Assembly (NCBI GenBank): GCA_964345365.1
Contig: CAYFQR010000002.1
Span: forward strand, 33 to 64,032
Length of the DNA stretch: 64,000 nt
Origin: an uncultured Oscillospiraceae bacterium
GTDB lineage: Bacteria; Bacillota; Clostridia; Peptostreptococcales; Anaerovoracaceae
Reading direction: 5' to 3'
Shown piece by piece: positions 12,992 to 37,221 of the stretch. The notes beneath the pieces are model-generated. The model ran no database searches and had not been told where the DNA came from. It was given only the letters and a program-made list of their open reading frames with translations. The stretch's first letter is position 1. Every line of letters starts with the position of its first letter. The position numbers were made by a program, and so were the translations under genes.

Positions 12992-13702
12992 CTATCCCAC
13001 TATAACCGACATCAGCCATACAACCGGCGGTGTTATAATAATCGATGTAACATTAAATATTATAAGTGCCATAAGTATCAAAGTGCCTCTTTGATATATA
13101 GGATACCACCAGCTGTATTTTCTAAGGTCGAATATCTGTGTTATTATACCCCAGCCGTCAAGCGGAGGGCAAGGTATCAGGTTGAATATCATCAGTACGA
13201 GGTTAATATATACCGTAAAGAACACCATGTCGAACAGGATTCCGTTTGCCATTGAGTTCTTAATCATAATCCTTGCAATAATTCCGAAGAACACGGCAAT
13301 CAGTAAATTGATTGTAACTCCCGCTATAGATACGATGAACTCGTCACGCCTTTTGTTCTTATAAAAATACGGGTTTATTTCAACAGGCTTTCCCCAGCCG
13401 AATCCCGCAATGATTATAAAAACCATACCTATGGGATCAATATGTGTCATAGGACTTATAGACAGTCTCCCTTGCGACTTCGGTGTCGGGTCACCCAATA
13501 AATGCGAAGCATAGGCATGCCCCGCCTCATGTAGCGATATTCCTATAATTATACCCGGGAGCAGAACCAACTTAGCATACAGCCAGGCGCCCGGATTACT
13601 CATGTTAAGCAATCTTTCTACAATGAGGATTGCAATAAAAACCCAGAATATCGGGTCCATTCTCCTGAAAAATCTTTTTATATCGTCGATTATTTTTCTC
13701 AT
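12992..13702 (-). CDS. Site-2 protease family (peptidase M50) membrane metalloprotease
   Basis: 236 aa, multi-transmembrane. HEAGHAYASH (HExxH) and NLIPCPPLDG motifs. Confidence 0.8.
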   Translation of the reverse strand: MRKIIDDIKRFFRRMDPIFWVFIAILIVERLLNMSNPGAWLYAKLVLLPGIIIGISLHEAGHAYASHLLGDPTPKSQGRLSISPMTHIDPIGMVFIIIAGFGWGKPVEINPYFYKNKRRDEFIVSIAGVTINLLIAVFFGIIARIMIKNSMANGILFDMVFFTVYINLVLMIFNLIPCPPLDGWGIITQIFDLRKYSWWYPIYQRGTLILMALIIFNVTSIIITPPVVWLMSVIVG

Positions 13703-13778: not shown

Positions 13779-14510
13779 TCAATAATAAAAGCCTCTTTTT
13801 ACATCGGAATATTCCTCAACCCTCGCCAAATACGCCTCCATCGCCGCCTCCTCATGTGCGAGCTTGGGTTCCTCTATCCCGATGCTCCTTAAAAGCATCT
13901 CGGTAAACGGAGGATTAAGCACCAGAAGCGGCCCGATTAAGTATGTCCCGATGAAGTTGTTTTTCTTTATCCCCTCTTCCGTAATTTCGGGGTTAAAACC
14001 TGAGCCTCGTTTTGTCATAAAAGCATAACACTCTTCGACGCCGGTATAGCAGCTATGTGAAAACTGTGATTTATATCCGACAATAATTGTATCGCCGTAC
14101 TTACCGGAATATTCTCCGAGATAGAGCGAATTAAATCTCTTCATAAGGTCAAGCTTCGCATATGTATTGAAGATACCGAGACACCTGAAGATTTCCCCGT
14201 CCGCAGATTCAATCCTGTCACCGAAGACTTCGATTGCATTTCCCGTTATCAAAAAATGCACGCCCAGCTCTATGAGCTCTCTTATTCTCTCCACATATTT
14301 TCCGAGTTTGTCCGTCACAAGACGCTGTGATGACTCCGACATCGTGCCCATATATATTAAGTCGGGCAGATTATTTGCAAAATACGGTTCTTCGGTCAGG
14401 TAATCCTCAACAACCTCAATCTCGTCCGAACATTTTTTTAGATAGCTTATATTCTCAAGGTCACCGTAAAGATTGGCGACCTCCGGAAACAATATTTCTA
14501 TTTTAATCAT
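13779..14510 (-). CDS. GatD-like CobQ-type amidotransferase homologue lacking the catalytic Cys and His (pair A)
   Basis: Collinear with S. aureus GatD as I recall it (NLYGD..., GTY.xGP). The nucleophile elbow reads LITGNAIEVFG instead of LTICGGYQFLG, and GTYLIGP replaces GTYLHGP. The ATG at 14508-14510 follows GGAGGG and overlaps the upstream stop by 8 nt. Confidence 0.75.
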   Translation of the reverse strand: MIKIEILFPEVANLYGDLENISYLKKCSDEIEVVEDYLTEEPYFANNLPDLIYMGTMSESSQRLVTDKLGKYVERIRELIELGVHFLITGNAIEVFGDRIESADGEIFRCLGIFNTYAKLDLMKRFNSLYLGEYSGKYGDTIIVGYKSQFSHSCYTGVEECYAFMTKRGSGFNPEITEEGIKKNNFIGTYLIGPLLVLNPPFTEMLLRSIGIEEPKLAHEEAAMEAYLARVEEYSDVKRGFYY

Positions 14511-15882
14511 TGAAGTCGCCCTCCTCAAGCCTTTTTTTAACCATATCGGCAACCTTTATTCCGAGTTCCAAAGAATCCGTTCCATAGAGAACAAATATAT
14601 TATCATTCTCAAAAAACTTCAATCTGTCCGGTGCATCGATTTCCTTTTCGGCGAATGAAAGACGGCTTTCATCTACGCCTGCGAGCAAAAGTCTGAGCTT
14701 ATGGTCGTGCCTTCTCGGGCCGCAGAGCACGATATTCTTAATATTATCTCTGTTAAGAAACTCGAAATCGCAGTCATAAAGCCAGCAGGTATTTTCACTC
14801 CAGTGTTTCATATCTCCCTGACATGAGTTCATCAGAATTATTTCCTTGTCGCCCGGCATCCCTGAAATATAATCAAAAACCCTCGTCGTAGCGAAAGCAT
14901 TTTTTTCTTTTGCGAGCATTCTGAACAGCTTCTTATCCCCGAATTGTTCTTCATCAAATCTCGACTCGACCAAGTTTACCCTTTCAAAAAATCCTTTTAT
15001 TTCTCCTGAGCCGTATCCGAGTTCAAACAAAAGCGTTATTACGGAAACTTGGTTATATATATTAAATATGCTGTCGTTCAAAAGGCGGTAACAGCCCGTT
15101 TCTGACGGCGTGTTCACGTCAATCGACATTCTGTCGGTGTCCGGGTTTTCCGCCGTATAATCGTATTCCGGAGACTTAAATCCGCAATTATCACAATAAG
15201 CCTTGCCGATATGATTATACCTCAGATACTCGTATTTCAACCTGTGGCTGCAAACGGGACAAACTTGAAAGTCATTTATAAGATTAATGCATTCCGTAAT
15301 GTCATTCTCAAGCCTGTTAACACCGTAATATACCCTCTTGTTTAACGGTGCTATTCTCGAAGATATAAGGTCATCAGCATTTAGAATGAGTATCGAATCC
15401 TCGGGTATATTATTTGACAGGAAATCGGCGATATATTCAGGGTGAGCATTTCTCATTATCGAATCTCTGCTTAGGTTTGTTACCAATATATATTCGGGCT
15501 TCAAGAAAGGAAATACCCTCTTCGCCGACCTCTCGTCAACCTCAAAAACTCCTATCTCGTATTTTTCCGAGCCGAAAATGCTCATTCCCTGCACGAGTGC
15601 CGTGGCAATTCCCGTGTCAATATTGGAACCCGCCGAGTTATTCAGAACTATTTTATTGTCAACTCTTAAAATGTCGGTTATCAGATTGGAACAAGTAGTC
15701 TTGCCGTTTGTACCGGTAACCGCAATTATTTTTTTCGGCTTTTTTGCATAGCTTAAGAATGACGGGCAGATCTTAAGTGCGACAATACCCGGGAAATTTG
15801 TCCCGTTATGTTTGGTTATCCTAAGTGCGACAATCGCAAGCTTAGCCGCCCAAAGCGCTATGATATATCTGATAAAGCCCAT
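14503..15882 (-). CDS. MurT-like Mur-ligase-family protein with a DUF1727-type C-terminal domain (pair A)
   Basis: VTGTNGKTT P-loop, FEVDE, TNLSRD, a Cys4 ribbon (CPVC...17 aa...CDNC) and a C-terminal WLYDCDFEFL...KLRLLLAGV segment. The start is set at ATG 15880-15882 (GGAGG RBS, TAATG overlap with the upstream stop). The resulting N-terminus matches paralogue B. Confidence 0.8.
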   Translation of the reverse strand: MGFIRYIIALWAAKLAIVALRITKHNGTNFPGIVALKICPSFLSYAKKPKKIIAVTGTNGKTTCSNLITDILRVDNKIVLNNSAGSNIDTGIATALVQGMSIFGSEKYEIGVFEVDERSAKRVFPFLKPEYILVTNLSRDSIMRNAHPEYIADFLSNNIPEDSILILNADDLISSRIAPLNKRVYYGVNRLENDITECINLINDFQVCPVCSHRLKYEYLRYNHIGKAYCDNCGFKSPEYDYTAENPDTDRMSIDVNTPSETGCYRLLNDSIFNIYNQVSVITLLFELGYGSGEIKGFFERVNLVESRFDEEQFGDKKLFRMLAKEKNAFATTRVFDYISGMPGDKEIILMNSCQGDMKHWSENTCWLYDCDFEFLNRDNIKNIVLCGPRRHDHKLRLLLAGVDESRLSFAEKEIDAPDRLKFFENDNIFVLYGTDSLELGIKVADMVKKRLEEGDFND

Positions 15883-16934
15883 TATTTTATCGCCTCCGTT
15901 ATGGATTTGTATGTTCCCTGTTTCAGCTTCAAATCTTGACAAAGGTCTTGTGACGGGTAGCTGTTTCCTTCAATCAGAAGAGGCCCGTGGTCCTCGGAGA
16001 TGCATACGTCCCATCCGACATAACCCACCTGCGGCACCAGATTGGCTGCTTCCTGAATCATGCCGAGAACTTCGTCCCATTTCGGAATTCGGAAACCCTT
16101 CAGCACCGTTCCTGAACCGGGTACTCTCTCGAACACATTTCTGTCTTTATCGAAACCGTCGGAAATGATTTCTCCCGTCTTAAAATCATAAATTGTAGAA
16201 ATACCGCCGTTATTGAAATTATCCACCACAGAACCGGGTTTACCCATCCTTATCCCGCCGGAAACTATTACAGCCTTGCCGTCTTTTAATATTGTGATAA
16301 CCCTAATGGTGTTCACGGAATCGGCGCTTAAGAGATTCATCGTCTTGTCCTGTTTCACCACTTCCTCCGCAAGCGGCTTATCATTATCTACGAGGTACAT
16401 ATAAAGCTCCTCGGTATCCCAATCCGAAACTTTAATCTTTTCGATACCTCTTCCGCAGCTCTCATGAAGAGGCTTGACCATTATATATTCTTTGCCTACA
16501 AGAAAAGCTTTGAAGGCTTCAGCATCGCTTCCCTCGACTCTGTCCGTTTCCTTAAGTGCAGTCCCTTTGATGTCTCCGAACATCTTCCCTTTGCCGAGGA
16601 CTATCCAGTCGCGCTTCATAAAGCTGTTGAATTTTTTGTTAAAAATCGCCTTGTCCTCGAAATACTGTATATATCTCCTGTCGTTGAACCTTTTGAAGAT
16701 CTTGTTATTCTTGCCGAGTGTGAGGATTTCATCCCTCTCCTTATGGTTTTTATTGTACATCTCAAAAAACTCATAATCGACATGGCCCGAGCCGTACCTG
16801 AGCGTACAGTAAAATATGTCCCGACGTACCGCCCTCCACGATTTCCCCGTTTTAGCGGCTATCCTCTTTGCCGTTTCATCGAACCTCGACAAGTCTGTTG
16901 TTTTAAGTTTTTTAATGTAGAAGCTAAGATTCAT
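15882..16934 (-). CDS. ATP-grasp fold ligase (resembles the sugar-transfer-associated ATP-grasp / RimK-related amino-acid ligase family)
   Basis: 350 aa. The C-terminal half (IMVKPLHESCGRGI..., NFNNGGI, VGYVGWDVCISEDHGPLLIEGNSYP) is typical of an ATP-grasp fold. ATGA overlap with the upstream gene. Confidence 0.7.
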   Translation of the reverse strand: MNLSFYIKKLKTTDLSRFDETAKRIAAKTGKSWRAVRRDIFYCTLRYGSGHVDYEFFEMYNKNHKERDEILTLGKNNKIFKRFNDRRYIQYFEDKAIFNKKFNSFMKRDWIVLGKGKMFGDIKGTALKETDRVEGSDAEAFKAFLVGKEYIMVKPLHESCGRGIEKIKVSDWDTEELYMYLVDNDKPLAEEVVKQDKTMNLLSADSVNTIRVITILKDGKAVIVSGGIRMGKPGSVVDNFNNGGISTIYDFKTGEIISDGFDKDRNVFERVPGSGTVLKGFRIPKWDEVLGMIQEAANLVPQVGYVGWDVCISEDHGPLLIEGNSYPSQDLCQDLKLKQGTYKSITEAIK

Positions 16935-17647
16935 GTAAGTGTTCTCCTCAATTCGTTAAGTCTGTAATTATATGCCTCAATGATGTTTTTTTCAAACGCT
17001 ATCTCATCATTGAGTCCCATAAGTCTCAAGAGATATTTGACAAAATACGGGTTAAAGATGAGATATGGCCCGAGAGAGTACGTGGCAAAGAAATTATTGA
17101 CATGAATCCCCTCTCTCCCGGTTTCCGGATTCATCCCGATTCCCGTTTCAATTTTCAAAAAATAATCCTTAAACTCACCGTAGCTGAAGCTGAATTGGCT
17201 CCGGTGCCCGAGCAGCGTCATGTCTTCAAACGTCGCTATATACTGCGAATTATGCCTCGGCAAATCCATATTCCTCACGGAATAAAAATCAAACAACCCG
17301 AGTGCGGGCACTTCTTTTATCAAATTGCCCGACAAGTCATTTTCTTTTATTAGATTCCCGAATATTTCGATTGCATTGCCCGTTACCAAAAATATGGTGC
17401 CGGCAGCTATCGCCGCCTCTATCTCGCCTCGATACCCCCTCAAAAGCTCTATCGTCTTTTCCTGATGTCTTTCCGTCATGCATCCGATATAGACCATATC
17501 GGCATCTGCTGTGAGGAACCTCGGCTTTTCGAGATGATGTGTCATGATAACCTCAAGCTCGTCGCTGCTTTTTTTGAGATATTCGATATTGTAACATTCA
17601 CCGTAGATATTGGTAAACTCAGGATAAATAAATTCAATCTTTTTCAA
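16931..17647 (-). CDS. GatD-like CobQ-type amidotransferase homologue lacking the catalytic Cys and His (pair B)
   Basis: 238 aa. Has FLVTGNAIEIFG at the nucleophile elbow and ATYSLGP at the His position. TTG start in a TTGA overlap with the upstream stop, preceded by an AAGGGGG RBS. Confidence 0.75.
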   Translation of the reverse strand: MKKIEFIYPEFTNIYGECYNIEYLKKSSDELEVIMTHHLEKPRFLTADADMVYIGCMTERHQEKTIELLRGYRGEIEAAIAAGTIFLVTGNAIEIFGNLIKENDLSGNLIKEVPALGLFDFYSVRNMDLPRHNSQYIATFEDMTLLGHRSQFSFSYGEFKDYFLKIETGIGMNPETGREGIHVNNFFATYSLGPYLIFNPYFVKYLLRLMGLNDEIAFEKNIIEAYNYRLNELRRTLT

Positions 17648-19002
17648 CTGTTTGCCCCCTTCGCATATTCTACGATGCTGTCACGCATATTTTTCGCCTT
17701 GGTAACATAATCAATTTCAAAAAGCACATATACTTTATCTATTCCTTCCCTGTCCACATGCTGCGGAATATCAGCCTCCTCCTCAACCGCCACAATCTTT
17801 TCCTCTGGCACTCCTGCGAGGAGCAGCCTCAGCTTATGATTGAGAAACATGTGTCCGCCCACCACAATCTTCTTGATATGCGGGCGATTCAAAAACTCAT
17901 AGTCGGTTTCATAAAGCCATGAAATCGTTTCGGTCGGATGATGTCTATCCTGCACCTCGTCCATAAGAAGAACCACATTTTTGTCGGACGGCTCGTCTGC
18001 CATATATTCGAATACCGTAGCAGCCGCCGAAACATTCTGCGATTTAGCCGCATAAGCAAAATATTCTATCCCGTTATACGTTACCGACGACTCTCTGATA
18101 TCCGTTATCTTCTGCCTTTGCATAAACTCCGAAATAACACCCATCTCATAGCCAAGTTCCAGAAAAAGAGCCGCTGCGGTAAGCACGTTGAAGCAGTTGA
18201 ACATCGTATCCGAAATCAGAGGCACGGTTTCTCCGTTCAATGTCATCGTTTTATTTAAGAGGTCTATATTTTTTGCGAGATATTTGCTCTCGGGAGTCTT
18301 GAAATCACAGCTCTCGCAGTGATATTTTCCTATATGTCTGTAGAGTCTGTAATCGTATTTTATCTTGCCGTCGCATACGGGACAGACTGAAATATCCCTC
18401 GAAATATTCGGCAGCGGTCTGAAACTGTCATCATCGATACCGAAAAATACCCTTTCAATATTTTTGGCAAGCCCGATTGAAATCGGGTCATTGGCATTTA
18501 ATATCGCCTTTGCGCCTTTTTTTGACATCCTCATGCACTTTTCCATGTGATTGAAGATGTTCTCGGGATGCCCGTTTCGTCTTAAACTGTCCTTGCATAT
18601 ATTGGTTACAACTATGTAATCCGGCTTAAGCTTCACCATCTCCGTATCCATCGAAAGCTCATCCGCCTCAAGCACCGAGCAGTCCACCTGCGGCTTGTTG
18701 AAAATATTCACTCCCCTGATGAGATTAACGGCAAACCCCGCCATGAGATTTGCACCCCAGTCGTTAAAAGAAGTCGACAGTCCCCGCTCGCTCAAAAAAT
18801 CGTTCACAAGCACGGATGTCGTAGTCTTGCCGTTTGTGCCTGTAATGGCTATCGTGAGCTTCGGTTTAGAAACAATTTCTAAAAAATCCGGACAAATCTT
18901 ACACGCCAGGAGCCCCGGCATATCCGTCTTCGGTGTGCCTCTGAGCTTATAGAATAACATCATCATTTTCGCTCCCCACAGAGCGATAAAAAATCTGAGC
19001 AT
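17644..19002 (-). CDS. MurT-like Mur-ligase-family protein with a DUF1727-type C-terminal domain (pair B)
   Basis: 452 aa. ITGTNGKTT, LEADE, TNICKD, a Cys4 ribbon (CPVC...17 aa...CESC) and SWLYETDYEFL...KLRLLLAGV. GGGAG RBS. It starts 10 nt after the cls stop. Confidence 0.8.
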   Translation of the reverse strand: MLRFFIALWGAKMMMLFYKLRGTPKTDMPGLLACKICPDFLEIVSKPKLTIAITGTNGKTTTSVLVNDFLSERGLSTSFNDWGANLMAGFAVNLIRGVNIFNKPQVDCSVLEADELSMDTEMVKLKPDYIVVTNICKDSLRRNGHPENIFNHMEKCMRMSKKGAKAILNANDPISIGLAKNIERVFFGIDDDSFRPLPNISRDISVCPVCDGKIKYDYRLYRHIGKYHCESCDFKTPESKYLAKNIDLLNKTMTLNGETVPLISDTMFNCFNVLTAAALFLELGYEMGVISEFMQRQKITDIRESSVTYNGIEYFAYAAKSQNVSAAATVFEYMADEPSDKNVVLLMDEVQDRHHPTETISWLYETDYEFLNRPHIKKIVVGGHMFLNHKLRLLLAGVPEEKIVAVEEEADIPQHVDREGIDKVYVLFEIDYVTKAKNMRDSIVEYAKGANS

Positions 19003-19012
19003 ATTGCACTCC

Positions 19013-20488
19013 CTAAAGTATCTCGGTGAGAAGCCTTGAGATACTCTCCTTGAATCTTACAAAAATCGGACGTTTATTATAATCTTCCATTGTCAGTTCA
19101 CGGCTGTTCTTCATATCTTCCTCAAAGGATTTTACCATTTGCTCCGTAAATTCCTTATCGAAGATAAATGCATTTGTTTCAAAATTCAGCTTAAACGACC
19201 TTATGTCGAAGTTACATGAACCTATGGACGTGACCTCCCCGTCCGCAAATATCGCTTTTGCATGCAGGAAACCTCCGTCATAGATGAACACCCTGCATCC
19301 GTCCTTGAGCAGCTCTCCCACATTGGAAAGGGTCGCCCAATATACGAAAATATGGTCAGGCTTATTCGGTATCATTATGTTGACTTTAACTCCCGATTGC
19401 GATGCCATCTTGCATGACTCTATAATCGATGCGTCCGGAACGAAATAAGGAGATTGAATATATACGGAATCCGTAGCAGCGGTAATCATCTTCATGAAAC
19501 CGCGCTTGATTTCCTGCTTTGGAGCTTCAGGCCCGCATGAAACGATTTGCAGTCCCATATCGCCGGCAACCTCGGTATTGATACGCCCCGCATCAAGCAA
19601 ATCGAGCTTCTCCTTAGTTACGAAACGCCAATCGAGAATGAATCTCGTGTTAAGCTCGTTCACTCCCGTTCCCCTGATTCTCACGTGTGAATCACGCCAA
19701 TGTCCGAATTTCGGTGCCAAATCACAATATTCGTTGCCGATATTATATCCGCCCGTATACCCTATTTTGTTGTCGACCACCAGAATCTTTCTGTGGTTTC
19801 GGTAGTTGAGGTTAAGCCCTATCTTTATCCCCATCCTTGCCAATCTCGGAGGGAAAAAATATGCCACCTTGCCGCCTGCTTTAATATATTCTCTGAGCAC
19901 TAAGTTATTCAAACCTCTTGAGCCGAGAGAGTCTACGAGCAGCCGAACTTCCACGCCTTCTCTCGCTTTCTCCGTCAGCGCCGCTATGAAACGCTTGGCT
20001 GTCTTATCATTTTTGATTATAAAATATTCCGCATTAACGGACGTTTCGGCATTTCTTATATCTTCAAGCATCCTGTCAAACAGCTCATTCCCGTCCACGA
20101 TGAGTTCTATATCATTCGTTTCGCTATATATGGCATTGCCGTAAACCTGATTCAGTATTACCAAATCCCTCCACTTGTATGCGGAGTAGTTATCAAGCCT
20201 GAGTTTCCCTTCCTCCAGCTCTTTAATCTGATAATCGAGATAGCCTCTTATAACGCTTTCCTCGTTATCATAGAGTTTGTTTATCTTGATTCGGGTAAGG
20301 TTCTGATTAAAAATCAAGTATAGTATGAACCCCAACACCGGAACAAACGCCAAAACCATAATCCACGCCAAAGTAGCAGTCGATGTTTTTCTCTCGAAGA
20401 ATATGACTGCCACGATTAATATGAAGTTTATTCCATATACCACCATTGTAGAGGATATATAGCCAAGCGGCGTTTCCATTTCAAACAT
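19013..20488 (-). CDS. cls: Cardiolipin synthase (PLD family)
   Basis: 491 aa. Two N-terminal transmembrane helices and two HKD motifs (NHRKILVVDN..., FLHAKAIFADG...). Confidence 0.9.
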   Translation of the reverse strand: MFEMETPLGYISSTMVVYGINFILIVAVIFFERKTSTATLAWIMVLAFVPVLGFILYLIFNQNLTRIKINKLYDNEESVIRGYLDYQIKELEEGKLRLDNYSAYKWRDLVILNQVYGNAIYSETNDIELIVDGNELFDRMLEDIRNAETSVNAEYFIIKNDKTAKRFIAALTEKAREGVEVRLLVDSLGSRGLNNLVLREYIKAGGKVAYFFPPRLARMGIKIGLNLNYRNHRKILVVDNKIGYTGGYNIGNEYCDLAPKFGHWRDSHVRIRGTGVNELNTRFILDWRFVTKEKLDLLDAGRINTEVAGDMGLQIVSCGPEAPKQEIKRGFMKMITAATDSVYIQSPYFVPDASIIESCKMASQSGVKVNIMIPNKPDHIFVYWATLSNVGELLKDGCRVFIYDGGFLHAKAIFADGEVTSIGSCNFDIRSFKLNFETNAFIFDKEFTEQMVKSFEEDMKNSRELTMEDYNKRPIFVRFKESISRLLTEIL

Positions 20489-35934: not shown

Positions 35935-37221
35935 TTATGACTGTCGGAGTATGCTCCTTGCCGCTCCGATGAAGTAAAGTGAGCCTGTAAACAATATTAA
36001 CTCATACTCTTCTTTTAATCCTATTGCCTTTTTCACGGCATCTCTGCAGTCATCAACAGCTTCAACCCTTGCTCCCTTTGCTTCAAGCTTCTTTTTCAGT
36101 TCCTCCGCTTCCATTTTGCGTGAATTTTCGGGCTCTGTCGCAATAAAATCACTTGCTATGGACGTTAATTGCTCTATTATTTCGTCGGTATCCTTATCCT
36201 TTAACATTCCCGTAACAATGAGAGTTTTTTTATCCGGAGCATATCTTAAGACTGTGTCAACAAGCATGTGTGCCCCGTCCGCGTTATGTGCACCGTCGAT
36301 GACGATAAGCGGTTCTCTTTTCATTATTTCGAATCTGCCTATCTGTTTGGCTCTTAAAAATCCTTCAAGAACCGCTTTTCTGCTTATCTTAAAGTCGGTG
36401 GTCACCTCATATATTGCAAGAGCCGCCAAAGCTGCAACCGCATTTTCAACTTGATGCCTGCCCGCCATGCCGATCCTCAGATTTTCGACATTGACGCCTT
36501 GAATCAGAACGTCCATTAGTGTGCCGTCTATCGATTCCTCTTTGATGTTGACAGGAAGGTTTTTTGTGAAAAAGAACAGCGAGCCTTCTTCTTTTGCCTT
36601 TTCTTCGATTACCGCAAGAGCCTCCTCATCCTTTACGGAAGTAACTACGGGACAGCCTTTTTTGGTAATACCCGCCTTGTTCGCCGCTATCTCCGAAAGC
36701 GTATTCCCGAGCCTGTCCATATGGTCGTATGAAATAGAGCTTATGACGGAAACCACAGGGTTCTTTATGATATTGGTGGAGTCGCCGATTCCGCCGAGTC
36801 CCACTTCAAGCACCACATAATCGGCTTTTTTTTCTTTGAAATAAAGAAAAGCCACAGCGGTTATTACTTCAAATTCAGTCGGAGAATCCTCTCCCCTGTC
36901 TGTGAGTATTTTTACTTTTTCAAGAACTGTGTCCGTGTACTTTTCCAAGTCTTCATCCGAGATAAATGCATGGTCAAACTCTATCCTCTCATTAAAAACT
37001 TCAAGAAAAGGAGATGTATACAAGCCTGTTTTGAAGCCTTCCGCTTGAAGCGCCTCATAAATATACTTACATACGGAGCCCTTGCCGTTCGTGCCCGCCA
37101 CATGAAAACATTTCAGTTCATCCTGGGGATTCCCGAGCTCAGCCATAAGCGAGGTCATTCTCTCAAGACCGAGTATGCTCCCGAACTTCTCAAATTCGTG
37201 TATTTTATCTATCGCGTTCAT
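35935..37221 (-). CDS. folC: Bifunctional folylpolyglutamate synthase / dihydrofolate synthase
   Basis: 428 aa Mur-ligase-fold protein with HVAGTNGKGS P-loop and FolC core motifs. Confidence 0.88.
   Translation of the reverse strand: MNAIDKIHEFEKFGSILGLERMTSLMAELGNPQDELKCFHVAGTNGKGSVCKYIYEALQAEGFKTGLYTSPFLEVFNERIEFDHAFISDEDLEKYTDTVLEKVKILTDRGEDSPTEFEVITAVAFLYFKEKKADYVVLEVGLGGIGDSTNIIKNPVVSVISSISYDHMDRLGNTLSEIAANKAGITKKGCPVVTSVKDEEALAVIEEKAKEEGSLFFFTKNLPVNIKEESIDGTLMDVLIQGVNVENLRIGMAGRHQVENAVAALAALAIYEVTTDFKISRKAVLEGFLRAKQIGRFEIMKREPLIVIDGAHNADGAHMLVDTVLRYAPDKKTLIVTGMLKDKDTDEIIEQLTSIASDFIATEPENSRKMEAEELKKKLEAKGARVEAVDDCRDAVKKAIGLKEEYELILFTGSLYFIGAARSILRQS

Follow-up and report, generated by a model that had tools for sequence, protein, structure and literature searches.

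The MurT/GatD step in building the Gram-positive wall is essential and a drug target, and the locus described here raises the question of what such a ligase pair may do once its glutaminase residues are gone. The locus lies at positions 13779-19002 on the minus strand of a 64,000-nucleotide stretch of DNA from an uncultured Oscillospiraceae bacterium of an Anaerovoracaceae-like lineage (NCBI GenBank assembly GCA_964345365.1, contig CAYFQR010000002.1); the whole stretch is called the window below. It is one translationally coupled operon of five genes, which encode, in order, MurT-like B, GatD-like B, an ATP-grasp ligase of the ATPgrasp_ST family, MurT-like A, and GatD-like A. The alignments identify the paired proteins, by fold, architecture, and ligase chemistry, as homologues of MurT/GatD but not as a glutamine-dependent isoglutaminyl synthase, and they should not be annotated as such because the catalytic triad, the oxyanion hole, and the equivalog scores all fail. 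We consider this structural finding solid, and it would surprise a specialist. As to function, we give a probability of roughly 0.5 to the reading that the ligases would add amino acids or amines, rather than glutamine-derived ammonia, to lipid II.

Both ligases have the Mur_ligase_M plus MurT_C architecture in Pfam without an N-terminal UDP-binding domain, with E-values for MurT_C of 3.5e-21 in MurT-like A (14503-15882, minus strand, 459 amino acids from the ATG at 15882, with an open reading frame that extends to a TTG at 15942) and 3.1e-19 in MurT-like B (17644-19002, minus strand, 452 amino acids). MurT-like A carries GTNGKTT at residues 57-63 (15694-15714), FEVDE at residues 113-117, TNLSRD at residues 135-140, and a Cys4 ribbon, CPVCSHRLKYEYLRYNHIGKAYCDNCGF, at residues 208-235 (15178-15261; C208, C211, C230, and C233). 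The counterparts in MurT-like B are GTNGKTT at residues 55-61, LEADE, TNICKD, and a Cys4 ribbon at residues 207-234 (18301-18384; C207, C210, C229, and C232). All motif strings quoted in the original prediction, which had been made from the letters of this DNA alone, were found in place in the translations of the two minus-strand reading frames. Among solved structures, the best sequence match of both proteins is Staphylococcus aureus MurT (7q8e and 6gs2; phmmer against the PDB, E 2.4e-49 for A and 1.1e-38 for B), followed by MurT of Streptococcus pneumoniae and S. pyogenes. An AlphaFold2 model of MurT-like A built on 42 homologues (mean predicted local distance difference test score, pLDDT, 86.6; predicted template modeling score 0.80) gave 13 MurT chains as its top 13 PDB fold matches (E 1e-24 to 1e-29, template modeling score up to 0.79), after which came pMurC, MurF, MurE, and cyanophycin synthetase (CphA1). 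No CapB or FolC family appeared among the Pfam, NCBIfam, PDB-sequence, or fold matches of A and B, and membership of these or other non-MurT Mur ligase families is rejected, with MurT first in all four kinds of search. The scores against the NCBIfam MurT equivalogs NF052464/NF045635 are nevertheless far below the cut-off of 800 bits, at 187 and 157 bits for A and 146 and 127 bits for B.

The residues for ATP, magnesium, and acyl-phosphate binding, i.e., the P-loop, E108, D110, E111, N130, D134, R138, R298, K315, N316, and R382 in S. aureus numbering, are kept in A, in B, and in the clade to which they belong, and a signature comparison found them at 89% or more in both the canonical group and the clade. 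N163, the four cysteines, and W352 are shared as well. The MurT-likes are on this evidence ligases that keep the carboxylate-phosphorylating machinery, and the proposal that ATP-dependent carboxylate activation is retained is supported by these residues together with the match of the model of A to MurT chains. The ligases of the clade show the switches Q135S, G319A, and R348E relative to canonical MurT, and D70, R183, K346, E363, and E414 are conserved charged residues of the clade that are absent from canonical MurT.

Both ligases diverge at the aspartate that in S. aureus (D349) belongs to the glutaminase triad. By residue count in the alignment to 7q8e, D349 falls on the D of GRD in A-D-G-R-D-T-S-W, a segment that reads LNDNAADGRDTSWIYDADFE in S. 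aureus MurT and LNDNYADGRDVSWIWDVNF in clostridial MurT, so that the canonical motif given in the original prediction is correct. The corresponding loops are NSCQGDMKHWSENTCWLYDCDFE in A (residues 352-374; 14761-14829, minus strand) and DEVQDRHHPTETISWLYETDYE in the C-terminal domain of B (residues 348-369; 17896-17961, minus strand). Alignment to the MurT structures bears out the predicted divergence of this segment and the loss of its aspartate, with N364 in A (S-E-N) and T359 in B (T-E-T) at the D349 position, a four-residue insertion just ahead of it in both proteins, and an invariant glutamate (E363 in A, E358 in B) in place of R348. The divergent stretch, residues 351-370, is also the part of the MurT-like A model with the lowest confidence; the corresponding segment of MurT sits at the interface with GatD.

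The partner proteins have changed to match. GatD-like A (13779-14510, minus strand, 243 amino acids from the ATG at 14510, with a reading frame that extends to 14552) and GatD-like B (16931-17647, minus strand, 238 amino acids), a probable GATase_3 fold without catalytic residues, align over their full length with S. aureus GatD (5n9m/6gs2; phmmer, E 2.4e-12 for A and 3.2e-7 for B). They score 26.4 bits (A, gathering score 27) and 32.1 bits (B) against PF07685, and 60 and 45 bits, respectively, against the NCBIfam GatD models NF052463/NF045636 with their cut-off of 450. The nucleophile elbow has changed from T-I-C94-G-G in S. aureus to I-T-G-N-A in GatD-like A and V-T-G-N-A in GatD-like B (ITGNAIE and VTGNAIE in longer form, versus canonical ICGGYQ), and the catalytic histidine of Y-L-H189-G-P is replaced in Y-L-I-G-P (A) and Y-S-L-G-P (B). 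Of the oxyanion-hole glycines, Gly60 has become threonine in A and cysteine in B, and Gly95 is asparagine in both. The same holds throughout the clade, where 96% of the partners have glycine at the Cys94 position, all have asparagine at the Gly95 position, and none has a histidine at the His189 position. The sole substrate-related residue retained is the equivalent of Arg128 (R125 in A, within KRFNS, and R131 in B), which is present in 100% of canonical and clade partners. In S. aureus GatD, G60 and G95 form the oxyanion hole and Arg128 sequesters the glutamine substrate (PMC5871853, Leisico 2018), and glutamine-dependent amidation is lost or severely impaired with MurT-D349N as well as with GatD-C94G or C94S (PMC6113224; PMC3266927). 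Pair A naturally has asparagine and glycine at the D349 and C94 positions. Because the cysteine, histidine, and aspartate of the triad as well as the oxyanion glycines are replaced, and because D349N and C94G are inactivating in S. aureus, glutamine hydrolysis by both GatD-likes can be regarded as excluded with high confidence. Nor are these pairs expected to draw on glutamine for amidating the alpha-carboxyl of D-iso-Glu in lipid II, since the partners lack all glutaminase residues.

These losses are the hallmark of a large clade. An exhaustive search of 1.84 billion representative sequences with the MurT-like protein gave 3445 matches, the best 150 of which, each standing for one cluster at 50% identity, scored 247-516 bits to A (S. 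aureus MurT, 171 bits); the clade thus comprises at least 150 such clusters. In total, hundreds of clusters occur across Clostridia, Bacilli, Actinobacteria, and Coriobacteriia. Among the best 150 matches the D349 column holds N (70), T (26), D (17), I (9), F (6), S (6), Y (5), and others, and the glutamate directly before it (E363 of A) is invariant in 58 diverse clade members, where canonical MurT has Arg, Thr, or Gln. A separate metagenome scan with a 14-sequence alignment drew in many unrelated Mur ligases through the P-loop pattern. When the MurT and GatD neighbors were extracted from 122 loci, yielding about 55 distinct locus pairs, every MurT with ADGxD adjoined a GatD with Cys94 and His189, and every MurT-like protein with S-E-x, the few with S-E-D included, adjoined a partner with T-G-N-A and no histidine. 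This all-or-none pattern, together with the absence of Cys94, His189, Gly60, and Gly95 from both GatD-likes of the operon, agrees with the predicted remodeling of the interface in step with the partner. One locus is intermediate (L050, 7001-9063): its MurT-like protein has Lys-Asp at 348-349, with the aspartate kept, its partner has V-T-G-S-A and no histidine, and in a neighbor-joining tree it branches beside the canonical clade. In the same crude tree canonical MurT is monophyletic, and A and B are placed in separate deep subclades. As A and B are in addition only 37% identical, each with its own widespread orthologues (58-82% identity for the B family), they are old paralogues, and a recent tandem duplication of one pair is rejected.

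Such wholesale loss of glutaminase residues, with scores far under both the MurT and the GatD equivalog cut-offs, could also mean that the pairs are decaying duplicates of murT-gatD without a catalytic role, an explanation that conservation effectively excludes. The genes are intact, overlapping reading frames, and the A loop, GD.KHWSEN.CWLYD.DFE, is nearly invariant among orthologues that are only 57-82% identical overall; that of B is conserved as QD(R/K)(H/N)HP(T/P)ET(I/L)(S/T)WLYETDYE. The partners have clade motifs of their own, namely G-x-M-(S/T)-E-x-x-Q, T-G-N-A-x-E, R-x-N-S, G-(Y/F)-K-(S/T)-Q-F, and (I/L/V)-G-P-x-L-x-x-N-P. The ratio of nonsynonymous to synonymous substitution rates (dN/dS) relative to the closest relative (L001) is 0.028 for the ATP-grasp gene, 0.042 for MurT-A, and 0.095 for GatD-A, the three genes to which the calculation is limited as dS is saturated for the others. 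Pseudogene decay is therefore rejected by the conserved motifs, the overlapping genes, and a dN/dS of at most 0.1 wherever it could be computed (0.03-0.10), and decay would also be at odds with the wide spread of the clade and with its conserved gene fusions.

We propose that each MurT-like pair would activate a carboxylate on a lipid-linked precursor of peptidoglycan, the likeliest candidate being the D-iso-Glu alpha-carboxyl of lipid II, and that this carboxylate would then be joined to an amino acid, a diamino acid, or a diamine instead of glutamine-derived ammonia. The remodeled interface loop with its invariant glutamate, together with the clade-specific lysine, would create a site suited to a nucleophile bigger than ammonia, and these two residues of the C-terminal domain may help to bind its zwitterionic form. 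The GatD-likes would serve as obligatory non-catalytic structural subunits that possibly present the substrate. S. aureus MurT shows no activity unless GatD is present, irrespective of the nitrogen donor (PMC3266927), which would explain why a catalytically dead GatD-like protein is retained, and it can replace MurE in vitro (PMC3266927), which means that it can ligate L-Lys.

Where such a reaction would be required is suggested by walls of the B type. B-type peptidoglycan, first described around 1970, is defined by an amino acid on the alpha-carboxyl of D-Glu, and according to what Schleifer and Kandler reportedly set out in 1972, its bridge, with a diamino acid, hangs on this carboxyl at position 2. 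That is the carboxylate which MurT activates, so an amide would be pointless there and an amino-acid ligase of MurT ancestry would be required. To our knowledge, the reaction that gives the alpha-carboxyl of D-Glu an amino acid in place of an amide has no assigned gene. A full-text literature search returned no description of the clade or of a gene for the attachment of the B-type bridge, nor any paper that connects MurT-like or pseudo-GatD proteins with B-type walls, with the addition of glycine or diamino acids, or with ATPgrasp_ST. An actinobacterial metagenome locus (L049) carries rpoD next to a MurT-like gene with V-E-N, whose partner has F-T-H-N-A and S-L-I-G-P. Its best 120 homologues, 56-100% identical and with V-E-N in 117, bear as organism names only Protaetiibacter larvae, Galbitalea, and Pseudolysinimonas, all of them Microbacteriaceae, and the Galbitalea locus has the same rpoD-adjacent pair with a partner that lacks both Cys and His. 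B-type peptidoglycan is characteristic of Microbacteriaceae (Table 3 of PMC7033078, with ten genera; Rhodoluna in PMC4156110). Members of the clade from this family (P0437, P0447, and other JGI entries) are annotated as "lipid II isoglutaminyl synthase (glutamine-hydrolysing)", a label that is probably wrong, as the missing Cys, His, and Asp make it unlikely to be correct.

The same pairs might instead be ammonia-dependent isoglutamine synthases that take free NH3/NH4+ from the ammonia-rich gut and keep the dead GatD-like protein only for structure; in a variant of this idea, D-Glu would be the target of one pair only, and the other would amidate a further carboxyl, for example that of meso-diaminopimelic acid. 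Such an enzyme is chemically possible, as free NH3 remains a substrate at pH 8.5 for S. aureus MurT paired with GatD-C94G (PMC3266927), a result that also counts against the addition of amino acids or amines. The unchanged ligase core is equally in keeping with it, as are the many clade members that occur, like murT-gatD, as plain bicistrons in housekeeping contexts. It is, however, at variance with the conserved rpoD-adjacent pair of the Microbacteriaceae, whose B-type walls use the D-Glu alpha-carboxyl for the bridge, and E363, K346, and the conserved pseudo-active site (TGNA, GxM(S/T)ExxQ, G(Y/F)K(S/T)QF, and the kept Arg) would be superfluous for NH3. Two anciently diverged pairs and an ATP-grasp ligase in one operon are also hard to explain by amidation alone. 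We consider ammonia-dependent amidation unlikely.

That the acceptor would be a lipid-linked peptidoglycan precursor, as for canonical MurT, is what the fusions and neighborhoods of the clade point to. Fusions of MurT-like to GatD-like proteins occur in P0254, P0265, and P0342, and of ATPgrasp_ST to MurT-like proteins in P0303 and P0336. In P0312, found on six contigs from independent samples, a MOP flippase is fused to a MurT-like protein and followed by a GatD-like gene; for the flippase part, SpoVB gives the top score (140 bits), ahead of MurJ (41 bits), and both scores are under the cut-offs. At one such locus (L041, 7800-10814; also L042, 8001-11015) the fusion of a SpoVB/MurJ-type flippase to a MurT-like protein measures 1004 amino acids and has an S-E-T loop, with the GatD-like gene next to it. 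In a second genome (L126, 5225-11872; also L127), a separate SpoVB-like flippase gene (155 bits) is directly followed by an ATPgrasp_ST::MurT-like fusion of 786 amino acids, a GatD-like gene, fba, and murA. Neither beside the cassette of the window nor at about 45 related loci were glycosyltransferase or polysaccharide genes seen.

It is less probable still than ammonia-dependent amidation that the acceptor lies outside peptidoglycan, in which case the three ligases would decorate or polymerize another carboxylate-bearing envelope molecule such as the uronic-acid repeat of a polysaccharide, or would make a cyanophycin-like branched polyamide. The ATP-grasp Pfam family is named "sugar-transfer associated", MOP flippases export polysaccharide units too, the ATPgrasp_ST::MurT-like fusions mimic the layout of cyanophycin synthetase, CphA1 is among the structural matches, and the DNAAD motif, the proposed reader of the stem-peptide lysine (PMC6113224; PMC3266927), is altered. 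Against this, the loci lack polysaccharide neighbors and have housekeeping contexts, the fused and adjacent flippases score highest to SpoVB and then MurJ and are thus of the lipid II type, murA is near one locus, and the features specific to MurT (no N-terminal domain, Zn ribbon, MurT_C) are retained. The cyanophycin synthetase models TIGR02068/NF010623 reach only 23-30 bits, with cut-offs of 850-877, and match the P-loop region only. The flippase and genomic links would indicate lipid II rather than a cyanophycin-like product.

Since A and B belong to different deep subclades, they may add different residues, and A, B, and the ATP-grasp ligase together would add a branch or cross-bridge of two to three residues before the precursor is flipped. 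The ATP-grasp ligase (15882-16934, minus strand, 350 amino acids) matches PF14397 ATPgrasp_ST with 161.4 bits (gathering threshold 31.4), and in an alignment of 10 homologues its Mg/ATP residues K154, D309, and E322-x-N324 are invariant. No sequence relative of it was found in the PDB by single-sequence or 10-sequence profile search, and a single-sequence structure model (pLDDT 34) was unusable. Residues 114-133 (16536-16595) form a 20-residue insertion, GKGKMFGDIKGTALKETDRV, which is present only in the window and its closest relative (L001) and is absent from nine other aligned homologues.

The cassette comes in two forms. A three-gene form, with ATPgrasp_ST, MurT-like A, and GatD-like A, occupies the same slot (miaB ... 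cls ... cassette ... M50 ... gntR) in 28 genomes of Anaerovoracaceae-like or uncultured Clostridia, and the five-gene form with pair B is present in the window, L001, and L034-L036. Farther out in the clade, the genes form simple two-gene units amid housekeeping genes of various kinds. The ATP-grasp genes upstream of MurT-like A are of two versions that are about 30% identical (those of L002-L028 versus 15882-16934 of the window), one accompanying the three-gene and the other the five-gene cassette, which hints that the ATP-grasp ligase and pair B may have arrived or changed together. Three genome bins labeled Absicoccus, Bacteroides stercoris, and Bacteroidaceae (L003, L005, and L009) contain the Clostridia-type cassette with flanks as in Anaerovoracaceae-like metagenome-assembled genomes, and their assignments are probably due to binning contamination.

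Taken over the clade as a whole, the wider proposal is that this family attaches the first residue of a cross-bridge or substituent to the D-Glu alpha-carboxyl in lipid II, candidates being a diamino acid, glycine, or a diamine, with the former glutaminase as a non-catalytic, possibly amino-acid-binding subunit, and that the operon builds a branch of two to three residues. The attachment of this first residue is what sets apart B-type peptidoglycan, of Microbacteriaceae and others, and other alpha-substituted variants. We hold this proposal tentatively, at somewhat less than even odds. The clade also occurs in Olsenella urininfantis, and several observations of this kind weigh against our interpretation. 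Olsenella is not known as a B-type organism, so the B-type wall cannot account for everything. For the Microbacteriaceae there is a single taxonomic correlation, based on three named genera and unnamed metagenome proteins, and the asparagine at the D349 column is constant across Microbacteriaceae genera that use different diamino acids, so that the residue at this position would be no simple specificity code. The active site of S. aureus GatD is 20-40 Å from the gamma-phosphate of ATP (PMC6113224), and a nucleophile held by the GatD-like protein could accordingly make no direct attack without a large closure. The literature search yielded nothing on the peptidoglycan chemotype of Anaerovoracaceae. 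The change of nucleophile or acceptor suggested by the original prediction has, on balance, been strengthened by the Microbacteriaceae distribution, the fusions, and the clade-specific charged residues, which fall short of proof. In Olsenella-type members we also observed a locus (L124, 2883-10118) whose pair, with a T-E-F loop and a partner without a Pfam match, is divergent to genes for a response regulator, a histidine kinase, and an ABC/FtsX transporter, an arrangement resembling the Bce-type modules for cell-envelope stress.

The overlapping genes and the Shine-Dalgarno sequence ahead of each are the reason to regard the five genes as one translationally coupled operon. The TTG start of GatD-like B overlaps the stop of MurT-B as TTGA, the start and stop of the ATP-grasp gene overlap the neighboring genes as ATGA and TAATG, and GatD-like A, whose start was set at 14510 from this junction, overlaps the stop of MurT-A by 8 nucleotides (ATGATTAA) and is preceded by GAGGAGGG. 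The true start of MurT-like A is most likely the ATG at 15882, and the TTG at 15942 is unlikely, because GGAGG lies 10 nucleotides upstream, the TAATG overlap joins it to the ATP-grasp stop, and its homologues are 456-465 amino acids long. The cardiolipin synthase gene cls (19013-20488) is upstream of the operon, with the start of MurT-B 10 nucleotides past its stop. The G+C content of the operon is unremarkable, its flanks consist of core genes (recA, ftsK, uppP, asd, miaB, gpsA, plsY, der, and smc, then pyrimidine and purine genes), and no Rfam or tRNA match, and thus no riboswitch or T-box that would name an amino acid, was found in the window. Directly downstream of the cassette is a gene for an M50-type membrane metallopeptidase (12992-13702), which stands just 3' of the cassette in many relatives too (15 nucleotides away in L037) and has a faint match (25.7 bits, cut-off 225) to the YydH/LiaK epipeptide maturation proteases. 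A further reading frame of the Mur ligase superfamily (35935-37221, 428 amino acids, P-loop AGTNGKGS) adjoins valS; by this neighborhood and its motif it looks like FolC/FPGS, and it is unrelated to the cassette.

Members of the clade are labeled in databases as "MurT ligase domain-containing", "DUF1727", or "lipid II isoglutaminyl synthase (glutamine-hydrolysing)". This sister clade of MurT/GatD, which is large, conserved, and glutaminase-dead, offers a concrete and testable candidate for the ligation of amino acids to the D-Glu alpha-carboxyl. If this is true, the partner would be a clean case of a pseudoenzyme that persists as a subunit for the sake of structure or to present the substrate. 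As the glutamine-hydrolysing labels are probably wrong, the muropeptide repertoires of the gut that are relevant to host sensing may hold unrecognized structures.

Compared with known systems, the pairs are closest to MurT/GatD of S. aureus (6GS2/7Q8E), S. pneumoniae (6FQB), and S. pyogenes (9SQ9), with which they share the order of a Mur ligase gene followed by a partner of probable GATase_3 fold, identical ATP, Mg, and acyl-phosphate residues, the Cys4 ribbon, the kept Arg128 of GatD, and the top sequence and fold matches. They differ in the replacement of Asp349, Cys94, His189, and Gly60/Gly95, in the change of R348 to an invariant Glu and of Q135 to Ser, in the four-residue insertion before the loop, in the altered DNAAD motif, and in equivalog scores far under the cut-offs, and the operon of the window holds two pairs and an ATP-grasp ligase. 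The ligases MurC-F and the archaeal pMurC (6VR7), the next-best structural matches after MurT, share the ATP-dependent acyl-phosphate chemistry and bind an amino-acid nucleophile with the C-terminal domain, but their substrates are nucleotide precursors, whose main chain they lengthen, their N-terminal domain binds UDP, and they work without a GatD-type partner; their sequence similarity to the MurT-likes is confined to the middle domain. CphA1 likewise combines an ATP-grasp with a Mur-type ligase for a branched amide, in the same domain order as the ATPgrasp_ST::MurT-like fusions; here, however, the CphA N domain is lacking, and the Mur part is of the MurT type with a Zn ribbon and a GatD-like partner. 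The role proposed for the ATPgrasp_ST protein, a member of PF14397, would finally resemble that of Aslfm of Enterococcus faecium, a D-aspartate ligase of the ATP-grasp type that adds a cross-bridge residue to the peptidoglycan precursor.

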